Below are positions 46,687 to 50,484 of a stretch of DNA of 64,000 bases, one piece after another. The notes beneath the pieces were generated by a model. It worked only from the letters and a program-made list of their open reading frames with translations. It was not told the DNA's origin and did not search any database. The DNA comes from Parcubacteria group bacterium Gr01-1014_8. GTDB lineage: Bacteria > Patescibacteriota > Minisyncoccia > Phycocordibacterales > UBA2100. Location of the stretch: positions 32,001 to 96,000 of the forward strand of contig VMGC01000001.1 of NCBI GenBank assembly GCA_007376385.1. The letters run 5' to 3'. Position numbers and translations under genes: made by a program. The stretch's first letter is position 1. Each line of letters starts with the position of its first letter.

Positions 46687-47421
46687 ATGGGGTTGTTGGA
46701 AACACGCAAACTCACAAAATCATTCGGTGGAGCTCAAGCGGTGGATCATGTTGACCTCTCGTTCGAAGCGGGAAAGATAACTGCGCTTATTGGCCCCAAC
46801 GGGTCGGGAAAAACTACGCTTATCCATACGATAACCGGCATGATGCCGATGGGTGGTGGCACGGTCGTTATCAGTGATTCAATCGAACTTTCAAAAATAG
46901 CTGCTCAGGACGTAGCATCCTACGGAATCACGCGAACATTCCAGAATTCACGGCTCATCCAGCAAATGAGCGTGCTCGATAATGTGCTGTTTGTTCTTAC
47001 TGAACGAAATTTTTTCGGTTCTTTATTTGAAAGACACGGAACATTTCATCTGGACGCCGCCGAGGATATATTGAAAAAGATCGGACTGTGGGAAAAACGT
47101 GACGAAAAAGCGGAAAATTTGTCGTACGGCCAGCGCAAGCTACTTGAAGTTGCGCGAGCCGTATTGATGAAGGCAAATGTATATTTTTTTGACGAGCCGT
47201 TCGCAGGATTATTCCCTGAAATGCGTAAAACTATTTCAGATATCATGCGCAAATTGAAAAATGCCGGCGCTGCAGTTGTACTTGTCGAACATGACATGGA
47301 ACTCGTGCGCGAACTCGCCGACCACTGTTACGTCCTCGATAGCGGCAAAGTTATTGCCGAGGGAACACCGGAACAGGTTCTCAAGCAAGCTAATGTCGTT
47401 GAGGCGTATTTGGGTAAATGA
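46687..47421 (+). CDS. livG: ABC transporter ATP-binding protein (LivG-like)
   Basis: Walker A 'GPNGSGKTT', signature 'LSYGQRKLLEVARA' and Walker B 'FFDEP'. Confidence 0.9.
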   Translation: MGLLETRKLTKSFGGAQAVDHVDLSFEAGKITALIGPNGSGKTTLIHTITGMMPMGGGTVVISDSIELSKIAAQDVASYGITRTFQNSRLIQQMSVLDNVLFVLTERNFFGSLFERHGTFHLDAAEDILKKIGLWEKRDEKAENLSYGQRKLLEVARAVLMKANVYFFDEPFAGLFPEMRKTISDIMRKLKNAGAAVVLVEHDMELVRELADHCYVLDSGKVIAEGTPEQVLKQANVVEAYLGK

Positions 47422-47422
47422 T

Positions 47423-48142
47423 ATGAAAGACACATTGCTTCAGCTCAAAGATGCATATGTGCAGTACGGCGGAGTAACTGCTCTCGCTGATGCGACTGTG
47501 CGCATAGATGATGGGGAAATTGCGGCACTGATGGGACCGAACGGGGCAGGAAAATCGACTGTTTTAAAGGCTTTATTCGGAATCGCACCGATGACACATG
47601 GAAAAGTTTTGTGGCACGAGCAAGAACTCAAACCTGTGCCGTATGAGATGGCAGCACGCGGAATTGCATATGTTCCACAGGGAAGACAAGTATTTAAAAA
47701 CCTCACTGTCTATGAAAATCTAGAGCTCGGCGGATATGCCCTGCCGAATAGAAAAGACACAAAGAAAAATATCGAGGCGGTATTGCATATTTTTCCTGCC
47801 ATTGAAGAAAAACTCAATACAAAAGCAGGATTACTCTCCGGAGGCCAGCAGCAAATGCTCACTATCGCGCGTGGGCTTGTATCTGACCCGAAAGTACTTC
47901 TGCTCGATGAGCCATCACTTGGACTTGCACCAAAAATTGTGAAGGACGTGTTCGAGAAAATCAAAGAAATAAACGCTATTCGGAAAATTGCGATTGTCGT
48001 CGTGGAGCACAGCGTGAAATCCGTCCTTTCCATCGCGCATCGTGCGTATATTCTTTCAAGAGGAAAGATATTCGCAGAAAAAAGCGCGCAAGAACTGATG
48101 ACAAGTGATACGCTTTCAAAAGCATTCCTAGGAACAAGCTAA
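47423..48142 (+). CDS. livF: ABC transporter ATP-binding protein (LivF-like)
   Basis: Start at MKDTLLQ, 1 nt after the livG stop. Walker A 'GPNGAGKST', signature '[14 protein letters not shown]' and Walker B 'LLLDEP'. Confidence 0.9.
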
Positions 48143-50358
48143 CGACGTCGTTTACCGTGGAAGGCCTTATGAACTTCTCTAAGGTGCTTATCAGTGACGT
48201 GCGTGTACACTTGCGTAGTTGCAATATTTGCGTGGCCCAAAAGTGCCTGAACGGAACGCAAGTCGGCACCATTCTCCAGCAAGTCTGTTGCGAAAGAGTT
48301 GTGAGAAATGAAACCATCGGTAATAAAGTTGTGCGTTGGTTCTACTGTAAAGTCGTAGACAATTGATGGTTCGCTTAGATTCTCAATACGTTTAACGCGT
48401 AACCAGCGAATCGAATCCAGAGAATGTACAAGTCGCAAATGTTCTACGCACAAGTGCTTTACGTTGTTTTCATCGCACGCTTTAATTAAGGACTGTAATA
48501 ACGTTGGCGTTGTGCATATGCGCGTATATCTTTTAAGATATCGAATACCATACTCCTCTCCCAATAGGTGCATAAAACCCTTCTTTTCCAACAAAACTGG
48601 GTACAGAGTCCGCACTATATTTTGTGTTGGCAATGCAATATCGAGGCGCATCCACTTTTTCTTGGACTGTAAATTTTGCTTAAATGTTGGAATTAGTTCC
48701 ACAAATCGATTCTGACTTGGGGGATATGTAACATACAACGTATATATCGTATGTTGAATCGTACGTCCCTGTGGTAATTTAACCATTCTTGTTCTTGGTA
48801 AAAGGATACTCTCAATCGAGAGTCTTAGTAACAACATTTGCACATCCTTTAAGAGTTCTTTACTTGCTGAAAACATTTTTATCGCGCCATTATTTCCTTC
48901 AGCATCGTAATATCCAGCCAAAAATGAACGAATATTTTCTTCTGATTCTTGAAAGAGTTGCGGAGGGACACGTCTGTATTTTGAACGCTGCGTTATACCA
49001 AATGATCGTACTTTTTTAAGAAAATCGACATTGTAAATATTGAGCGCAAAACCATGACCATTTGACAAAGCAACTATTGTTCCGTACCGACCAGTCACAT
49101 GATGCACAATCTCGTTGTACAAATCGATATGTCGCCTGTCTTTGTCGTTCAAGATTATTCCGCGCCTTGCCTCGCTCAAGGTCCCATCGCCGAGAATATA
49201 GCCGAGTAGGCGCCAGAAGTCGGTTGATTCGGTTTCTGCGTGCTTTTCAAGATGCATCTCAATACCGCGCACCCCGGCAACATAATCACCGATCTTCAGT
49301 TCCTGCACCTGAATAGCAGTAATTCCGTTTTCTGTAACTGTGAAAAAACTATGGTACGGAGTACATAGTATTTCCCGTCCATCCGCCCATAGTGAGATCA
49401 TATGGTCGGTTTTATGTGTTTCTTTGTGCGTAATCGCTGCACGGATAAAGCGATTATTGAACCAGTCGAAGCCAAGTACTTTTTTTGTGTCATTGGCGGT
49501 AAATAATTTTTCTGCTGTAGTCAGAGAAGGATTGCCCATGACTCTCGTTTCAGGATGAAGACAATGGCGAATGACGTGAGGAGTCACTTTGCGTGTGATG
49601 CCAGCCCTGATCGCGTACTGTTTCACTATCCGTTCAACAGAGCGGGGGGTGAGCGTCTGAAGTTTTTTGCCAGCTCGCCCATAGCTGACAAACAATGCGC
49701 CCTCCACATCACCGCGCTTCTCCAAATACTCTTTCACGGCTTTCTTTGCAGTAGGAGAGAGAAATACAACGCGGACTTTATCGCCCTTGCCGCGTATTGA
49801 AAATTCATCTCGGGAGAGATCGAGATCTCTATCGAGCGAACAGAGTTCGGAAACACGAAGACCAGTTGAAAAAAATAATTCAAGAATCGCACGGTCACGA
49901 AGTGCCGTCAGCGAATTACCGCTCGGACCTTTCATGAGCCGCTCAAGTTCCGCAGCCGTGATCAAGTCAAGATCCCGCCCACCGACTTTCGCAAGTTCAA
50001 TACGCTCGGGGGAGAGCGATTCAATGTTCTGTTTCCGCATGTATTTCAAAAACGAGCGCAGAGCGATGAGATAGTAATTCTGCGTCTTTTTTTTCATGTC
50101 ACCAGACACTCCCGGTTGACGATTCAACCACAATCGAAATTCGCGAACCAAAGGCTCAGTGAGTTTCGCGGGAGATGCCACCTTCGTATGAGTGAGGAAA
50201 CGAGTCAGATAGCGGTCGTAATTCTCGACCGTTTTTACGCTCCTTCCTTTTTCTATCTCCAAGTATTCGAGAAATTGCGTCTTCATCTCCTGCAAATCGG
50301 ATGCCATGTGTCGATTATACATCCCATGTCGCACAATATTTTTTTCAACCGCCGGCAT
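48139..50358 (-). CDS. xerC: XerC/XerD-family tyrosine recombinase interrupted by an in-frame intein
   Basis: N-terminal SAM-like domain ('[23 protein letters not shown]'). Catalytic domain with '...RVSELCSL', then 'TPHVIRH' | 422-aa insert | '[34 protein letters not shown]', which carries the nucleophile Tyr. Without the insert this is a normal XerC/D of about 317 aa. Confidence 0.85.
48298..49563 (-). mobile_element. intein with LAGLIDADG homing endonuclease, inserted between His and Ser of the recombinase R-H-S active-site motif
   Basis: Starts with Cys ('CLHPETRV', block A) and has 'CTPYH' (TxxH, block B). LAGLIDADG motifs '[11 protein letters not shown]' and '[11 protein letters not shown]'. 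C-terminal '[21 protein letters not shown]' is followed by extein Ser. Boundary codons were checked on the nucleotide sequence: aca = Cys at 49561-49563 and gtt = Asn at 48298-48300. Confidence 0.8.
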
Positions 50359-50484
50359 ATGCTACACTTTCAATATGAAGAGCCACGTAACAATGATGAC
50401 CATGATGGGTATGTAGAGCCCGTGGCTGTCACCGATTAATAAAGCAGCCACGGGCACCGTGGCTTTTTTGATCCAACAACAGCT

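Follow-up and report, generated by a model that had tools for sequence, protein, structure and literature searches.

The window analysed here, a stretch of 64,000 nucleotides from the ultra-small groundwater organism Parcubacteria group bacterium Gr01-1014_8 (assembly GCA_007376385.1, contig VMGC01000001.1, positions 32,001 to 96,000 of the forward strand), carries on its minus strand a gene for an Xer-type tyrosine recombinase whose open reading frame (ORF) is split by an intein. An earlier note on this DNA had placed a LAGLIDADG intein at this point, and its description of the locus proved exact: the ORF lies at 48139..50358, the insert is 422 amino acids (aa) long, its removal restores the RH/S box of the recombinase (the slash marks the insertion point here and below), and all quoted intein and LAGLIDADG motifs are present. 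The features are listed below, with motif coordinates verified by back-translation.

48139..50358, minus strand: precursor ORF, Xer-type tyrosine recombinase split by the intein; the sole ORF there, 739 aa plus stop (Pfam, NCBIfam).
49564..50307, minus strand: N-extein, aa 18-265, SAM-like core-binding domain and first part of the catalytic domain, ending ...PHVIRH (Pfam; alignment to 4a8e and 1a0p).
48298..49563, minus strand: intein of 422 aa (aa 266-687), in which a double-motif LAGLIDADG endonuclease and a helical domain divide the HINT splicing domain.
49540..49563, minus strand: block A, CLHPETRV, with Cys266 (Cys1) as first nucleophile.
49351..49365, minus strand: block B, CTPYH (TxxH: T333, H336).
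49177..49209, minus strand: first LAGLIDADG motif, LLGYILGD391G, catalytic Asp391 (model helix 122-134; fold match to PI-PfuI and I-DmoI).
48892..48924, minus strand: second LAGLIDADG motif, FLAGYYDAE487G, catalytic Glu487 (LAGLIDADG_3 at aa 475-556).
48298..48360, minus strand: blocks F/G, ending in the penultimate His686 and terminal Asn687 (TIGR01443 intein_Cterm).
48142..48297, minus strand: C-extein, aa 688-739, beginning with Ser688 of SFATDLL, the +1 nucleophile (family alignment, back-translated coordinates).

The precursor reads ...VTPHVIRH followed by C...HN, and excision of the insert yields PHVIRH/SFATDLL. The insertion point is situated one residue past the catalytic HxxR arginine (H261-x-x-R264-H265/S688). 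Arg I (R168), the lysine K191 in GKGDK, His II (H261) and Arg II (R264) are located on the N-extein, and His III (H709, in LLGH) and the catalytic Tyr718 (QVYTH) on the C-extein. Since the 422 residues keep the former four apart from the latter two, no activity is to be expected of the precursor. The terminal residues are those expected of a splicing-competent intein, Cys266, H686-N687 and S688 all being present.

Profile searches assigned the insert to the inteins with scores well above the family cut-offs: Pfam Intein_splicing (PF14890) reached 72 bits against 35.8 over aa 292-687, LAGLIDADG_3 (PF14528) 43.8 bits against 22.5 over aa 475-556, and NCBIfam intein_Cterm (TIGR01443) 28.3 against 15.6. 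The NCBIfam intein_Nterm model scored 18.5, under its cut-off of 24.5. On these profile scores the resemblance is not due to chance. The best sequence match of the excised insert among solved structures was PI-PfuI, at an expectation value (E) of 2.8e-11. With 16 family members as input, AlphaFold gave a confident model of the insert and its short flanking stretches (predicted local distance difference test, pLDDT, 88.5; predicted template modelling score, pTM, 0.88), which showed, in this order, N-terminal beta strands (HINT), LAGLIDADG repeats, a five-helix domain and C-terminal HINT strands. The modelled endonuclease consists of two alpha-beta-beta-alpha-beta-beta-alpha repeats (elements H122-H298), each opening with a LAGLIDADG helix. 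When compared with the PDB by Foldseek, the top matches of this model were all endonuclease-bearing inteins (TliVMA 7qss at E 3.5e-27, PI-PfuI 1dq3, PhoVMA, PI-PkoII and PI-SceI), followed by the free LAGLIDADG enzymes I-DmoI and I-Tsp061I, which cover the middle part of the model. By every sequence and fold test applied, all of which it passes, the insert is to be classified as a canonical class-1 intein with a two-motif LAGLIDADG homing endonuclease.

The identity of the host was approached with the unspliced precursor and with the spliced extein, the latter counted as 300 aa from Met18. On the whole protein, the Pfam Phage_integrase match of 126 bits was divided between aa 133-266 and the C-terminus, and Phage_int_SAM_1 was found above its cut-off at aa 28-110. 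Likewise, the NCBIfam XerC, XerD and XerA matches to the unspliced precursor were broken at residue 266, and the spliced extein aligned with these three profiles end to end. It remained under the equivalog cut-offs of XerC (TIGR02224, 246.7 against 335) and of XerD (TIGR02225, 240.2 against 330), and passed the XerA model (NF040815) with 235.4 against 220 over profile positions 2-262 of 263. Its closest solved relatives were XerA of P. abyssi (4a8e, E 8e-40) and XerD of E. coli (1a0p, E 1e-37). Judged from these alignments, the host is an Xer-type, XerA-like recombinase, to which neither the name XerC nor the name XerD can be given because both equivalog cut-offs were missed. The label 'XerC/D-type' of the earlier note was thus correct as to the Xer-type tyrosine recombinase and too specific beyond that, as only the XerA model was passed.

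The element belongs to a large family, scattered unevenly over hundreds of ultra-small bacteria and archaea. A search with the full precursor retrieved, among the candidates scored, at least 267 protein clusters at E <= 1e-10. The best 120 clusters came from Kaiserbacteria, Nomurabacteria, Wolfebacteria, Azambacteria, Brennerbacteria, Liptonbacteria, Woesebacteria, Saccharibacteria, Kazan and others, and their proteins were 695-795 aa long with the same domain set, with the exception of P0045 (481 aa) and P0064 (672 aa, partial). Several members bear the label 'site-specific recombinase XerD/intein/homing endonuclease' from the pipeline of the Joint Genome Institute (JGI). In an alignment of 121 full-length sequences (40-100% identity) the junctions were always RH/C...HN/S or C. 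Cys1, the block B histidine, a T or S in block B and the terminal Asn were conserved in 121/121 and the penultimate His in 120/121, and the +1 residue was Ser in 109 cases and Cys in 12. Conservation of the endonuclease was equally strict: the first LAGLIDADG Asp was found in 120/121, and the second acidic residue in all 121 (113 Glu, 8 Asp). The intein varied between 414 and 430 aa across these relatives.

Genomes were scanned additionally, one per GTDB species, with alignment patterns spanning the junctions. This confirmed 88 loci, of which 80 were kept, and so placed the family in at least 88 GTDB species, DPANN archaea included, and the same junction was seen in 70 complete ORFs. A genome scan with a single intein sequence gave no matches, its patterns being too specific. 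When the intein by itself was searched against 1.84 billion cluster representatives, 29 clusters were obtained at E <= 1e-30. Part of these are divergent tyrosine recombinases scoring far under the Xer cut-offs (P0255, P0257, P0259, P0260, P0261, P0262, P0265), a few of which consist of the catalytic domain only, with 185-230 aa once spliced. All divergent hosts carry the intein at the homologous HxxRH/S point, and it seems from this distribution that the intein jumped between paralogous recombinase families. An assembly artefact was ruled out, since the same architecture occurred in hundreds of independent assemblies.

Some copies were broken. The intein is frameshifted in L071 (6850-7450), a locus of a Saccharibacteria metagenome-assembled genome (MAG), and two proteins of a single Woesebacteria contig, P0404 and P0407, are the two halves of one intein-containing xer gene; these may be either decaying alleles or sequencing errors. 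Two other proteins met during the searches had a different organisation. P0313 (956 aa) carries a related intein (27% identity, N-terminus CLHPETLV) directly after the HxHxDH of a metallo-beta-lactamase-fold protein, and P0148 (415 aa) is a close Xer homologue of the ~300-aa type with ~110 extra residues (PF14058, PF22823) and no intein.

Intein-minus alleles in related genomes, for which the earlier note had suggested a search, were found in L001, P0122 and P0398 and in more than 120 intein-less proteins of ~300 aa that are 80-90% identical to the spliced extein. The empty site of L001 (88% aa identity) reads ...CGCCAC/TCGTTC..., i.e. RH/SF, and is gapless at the DNA level, its intein-less junction sequence being ...CATGTCATCCGCCAC/TCGTTCGCGACC...; a gapless empty site was likewise obtained when L083 was compared with L085. 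For the four closest intein-plus alleles, the nearest extein relative was always intein-minus, at 89-92% identity, as compared with 84-87% for the nearest intein-plus extein. The closest pair came from Woesebacteria, where the intein-less P0398 and the spliced exteins of the intein-plus P0108 share 98.4% aa identity, with 88.9% identity of the gene DNA and 88-92% of the flanking DNA.

The window gene was compared with L082, in which the intein is also present, as regards relative age. Intein DNA was 82% identical (third positions 61%), with a synonymous divergence (dS) of 1.14 and a ratio of nonsynonymous to synonymous divergence (dN/dS) of 0.06, and the exteins were 70% identical (third positions 39%) with dS saturated and dN/dS not computable; the identity step up falls exactly at the N junction. 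As the intein identity exceeds the extein identity, the intein is of more recent date than the split between the two genes that host it. Synonymous sites were saturated in comparisons with L002-L008, and only the closer pair with L082 gave a ratio, by which the intein is under strong purifying selection. Composition also differed: the G+C content is 41% in the insert, 49-50% in the two extein parts and 49.4% in the whole window, and the intein lay under its host gene in three hosts (0.41 against 0.49, 0.455 against 0.58, and 0.39 against 0.44). The broken copies mentioned above are expected late in a homing cycle. Taken from sequence comparisons, the pattern fits homing, and the element looks selfish and currently or recently mobile.

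The distribution extended beyond bacteria. In nine loci under the labels Nanoarchaeota, Woesearchaeota, Pacearchaeota, Iainarchaeum or 'archaeon', the gene that houses the intein is of XerA type and has the C-extein S(F or Y)ATHLLE, and the same XerA-type host and intein were found at one Chloroflexi-labelled locus. An archaeal origin of L060 is supported by a neighbouring gene for transcription factor E. In crude neighbour-joining trees the archaeal exteins formed one clade, and their inteins fell into at least three groups among the inteins of the Candidate Phyla Radiation (CPR). Between archaea and CPR the inteins were closer (mean identity 0.40, maximum 0.50) than the exteins (mean 0.315, maximum 0.38), and this relation was reversed within CPR (inteins 0.40, exteins 0.52). 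Assuming roughly constant relative rates, vertical descent from a common ancestor is thereby rejected, and the identities point to a transfer of the intein between archaea and CPR, in either direction, which we consider likely, short of proof. Another group of loci, labelled Gammaproteobacteria, Pseudomonadales or Nevskiaceae (L022, L026, L027, L029, L038, L046, L055, L075, L081), clustered with Microgenomates for both exteins and inteins, and L044, with a Chloroflexi label, clustered with the archaea for both. The GyrA of L075 was 57% identical to that of Woesebacteria, and in the plasmid collection, where Pseudomonas and Escherichia records are also present, nothing matched it better than Bacillus at 51%. 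The presence of the intein in Gammaproteobacteria was rejected as doubtful, the MAG labels being in conflict with the extein and GyrA similarities.

These observations can be assembled into a putative cycle. Translation would produce a precursor of 722 aa (739 aa in the longest ORF). Following the established class-1 intein mechanism, Cys266 would undergo an N-S acyl shift, Ser688 would attack the thioester by trans-esterification, and Asn687 would cyclise with the assistance of His686 and of block B T333 and H336; an O-N shift would then give a recombinase of 300 aa with the restored PHVIRHSFATDLL box and a free endonuclease of 422 aa. As expected from LAGLIDADG biology and from the population patterns, this endonuclease would cut intein-less xer alleles at the DNA encoding the RH/SF box, and repair would copy the intein in. 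CPR and archaeal Xer proteins show hardly any variation in this target, which supplies the Ser or Cys needed at +1; this would account for the occupation of one and the same position across many CPR lineages, in the XerA of DPANN archaea, where it probably arrived via inter-domain transfer, and in divergent tyrosine recombinases. The claim of a LAGLIDADG intein in an Xer-type active-site box, with splicing presumably obligatory, is supported by the profiles, the fold, the residue conservation in 121 relatives and the exact empty site. We regard it as highly probable that a selfish class-1 LAGLIDADG intein, mobile at present or until recently, resides here in the presumably single-copy chromosomal Xer-type recombinase gene of a member of the Parcubacteria (CPR/Patescibacteria).

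Several considerations nevertheless weigh against this interpretation. Splicing and DNA cleavage are deduced from conserved residues and population patterns, and the broken alleles mean that some copies of the family are non-functional. The patchy distribution could alternatively have arisen from repeated precise loss. With respect to the archaea, the trees are crude neighbour-joining trees at ~40% identity and without support values, and some MAG taxonomic labels look wrong when compared with the sequences they are attached to. That the host Xer takes part in resolving chromosome dimers is an assumption based on homology; a search of the window for the dif core gave 0 matches against 0.43 expected, the core used being E. 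coli-like and uninformative for CPR.

The alternatives concern the use made of the intein, its integrity and the nature of its host. A domesticated intein could act as a post-translational switch, in which splicing conditional on redox state, temperature or DNA damage gates Xer and, with it, dimer resolution at division. Its location one residue from the catalytic Arg II, by which the precursor must be inactive, would suit this purpose, as would the age and diversity of the intein family and a Cys beside the block B TxxH (C332), which is found in 102/121 relatives and could in principle pair with Cys1. Redox-trapped inteins are known, those of MoaA and PolII being examples. However, 19/121 have V, T or A in place of C332, close relatives with exteins 89-98% identical manage without any intein, and the host gene is older than the intein DNA, which also differs from it in composition. 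Moreover, the endonuclease residues are as strictly conserved as the splicing ones, which is expected of a homing element and superfluous for a switch; we consider such a domestication very improbable. A broader proposal, that the intein is kept in CPR and DPANN symbionts as a conditional (e.g. redox-sensitive) switch on their only dimer-resolving recombinase, its crossing of domains marking direct DNA exchange, is doubtful as well, if slightly less so. That close relatives lack the intein speaks for its being dispensable, and the coupling of cell division to splicing put forward in the earlier note is speculation, for which no result here offers support.

A dead insertion, which would have lost splicing and left xer effectively a pseudogene in a genome relying on another recombinase or on none, is suggested by the clearly broken members (L071; P0404 and P0407). 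Yet the ORF of the window is intact across 2.2 kb, all nucleophiles and assisting residues are present in it and in 120-121/121 relatives, the dN/dS of the intein is ~0.06 and the exteins are still 80-90% identical to intein-less orthologues, which together make this the most implausible explanation of all. There is also very little likelihood that the host is the integrase of a mobile element (prophage or integron-like) instead of the chromosomal Xer for dimer resolution. The missed XerC and XerD equivalog cut-offs and the presence of the same intein in divergent, short tyrosine recombinases are compatible with such an integrase, but the Xer profiles were matched end to end and the XerA cut-off was passed, more than 120 orthologues exist at 80-90% identity, and the 64-kb window contains no second recombinase. 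The genomic context, too, is that of a housekeeping gene (ABC ATPases, metA, rarA), and rarA neighbours xer in all related genomes examined (P0122, L001, L082), with metA in P0122 as well. A selfish homing intein in a chromosomal Xer-type gene remains the preferred interpretation.

The insert has clear counterparts among known inteins as regards its architecture. PI-PfuI (RIR1 of P. furiosus, 1dq3) and the TliVMA and PhoVMA inteins (7qss, 7qst) are class-1 elements whose HINT domain is interrupted by a double-motif LAGLIDADG endonuclease plus an extra domain, and matched the insert by fold at E 1e-20 to 3.5e-27 with just 18-21% sequence identity over the structural alignment. Their hosts are a ribonucleotide reductase or a V-ATPase of hyperthermophilic archaea, whereas a tyrosine recombinase found in CPR bacteria and in DPANN archaea is concerned here. 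The inteins of RecA (Mycobacterium tuberculosis) and RadA (Pyrococcus horikoshii) also occupy the active site of a recombination enzyme whose activity needs splicing (PMC4513877). Those two enzymes exchange strands in an ATP-dependent manner and carry the intein in their ATPase domain, in contrast to the site-specific tyrosine recombinase of the present case. Engineered split Cre and split phiC31 integrase share with it the dependence of recombinase activity on protein splicing, but they rely on artificial trans-splicing with DnaE inteins at designed sites (PMC3973285, PMC6868429), unlike the present intein, which is natural, would splice in cis and brings a homing endonuclease of its own. On the host side, XerA of P. 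abyssi (4a8e) and XerD of E. coli (1a0p) resemble the spliced protein in full-length alignment, in all catalytic residues and in the two-domain layout, and neither has an intein. E. coli XerD has RH/AFAT where CPR and archaeal Xer proteins have RH/S(F or Y)AT, and since Ala at +1 cannot be a splicing nucleophile, E. coli XerD could not host a splicing intein at this point.

As to novelty, InBase is not known to list an intein in a tyrosine recombinase. A full-text literature search found no natural intein described in XerC, XerD, XerA or any tyrosine recombinase, and neither Xer nor integrase is mentioned in the main text of the large intein survey of Novikova et al. (2016). The suspicion that such an intein had gone undescribed held against the papers searched, and has to be qualified inasmuch as a widespread family is already deposited in NCBI, UniRef and JGI. 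What is new is the host family and the insertion site; the intein itself is otherwise canonical, and its sequences are public and some of them automatically labelled.

With this element the tyrosine recombinase superfamily (Xer/XerA) joins the hosts of inteins, in agreement with the rule that, among DNA-handling enzymes, inteins settle where the active-site motifs are most conserved. A family that is large, intact and apparently still moving represents a natural system in which homing could be studied in uncultured organisms. It may serve to mark gene traffic between CPR and DPANN, and is a source of new LAGLIDADG nucleases whose target sequence is shared by many recombinase genes. There is a bearing on annotation too, as the domain split drops such proteins under family score cut-offs. 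The record deposited for the window protein at NCBI (TSC86972.1, 739 aa) says just 'integrase/recombinase XerC' and leaves the intein unmentioned.

The start of the gene is probably not that of the longest ORF. A database protein of 722 aa (P0001) is 100% identical to the window protein, and both it and all homologues begin at the residue encoded by the ATG at 50307 (M18; MASDL... or MAGDL...), just downstream of a TATAAT, so that this ATG probably represents the true start of xer and gives 722 aa. The TATAAT lies 5-6 nt upstream of this ATG (window 50307..50318, minus strand), a spacing that suggests a leaderless or very short-leader xer mRNA. At the other end of xer, the stop codon runs 4 nt (48139..48142) into the end of a convergent ABC-transporter ATPase gene (47261..48142, plus strand).

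The xer gene is flanked by ABC-transporter ATPase genes on one side and by metA and rarA on the other. In the window metA sits between rarA and xer, and this order, rarA-metA-xer, is also found in the intein-less P0122; in L001 and L082, rarA is a neighbour of xer. A tblastn search of the 64-kb window revealed neither another recombinase nor another intein. A scan of the metA-xer intergenic region against Rfam returned nothing meaningful, with no riboswitch and no family for the hairpin found there. This strong terminator-like hairpin (window 50446..50464, AGCCACGG-GCA-CCGTGGCT, with T-runs on both strands) is located in the intergenic region of the divergent xer and metA genes, ~20 nt upstream of the metA start codon, and may be an attenuator or an operator.

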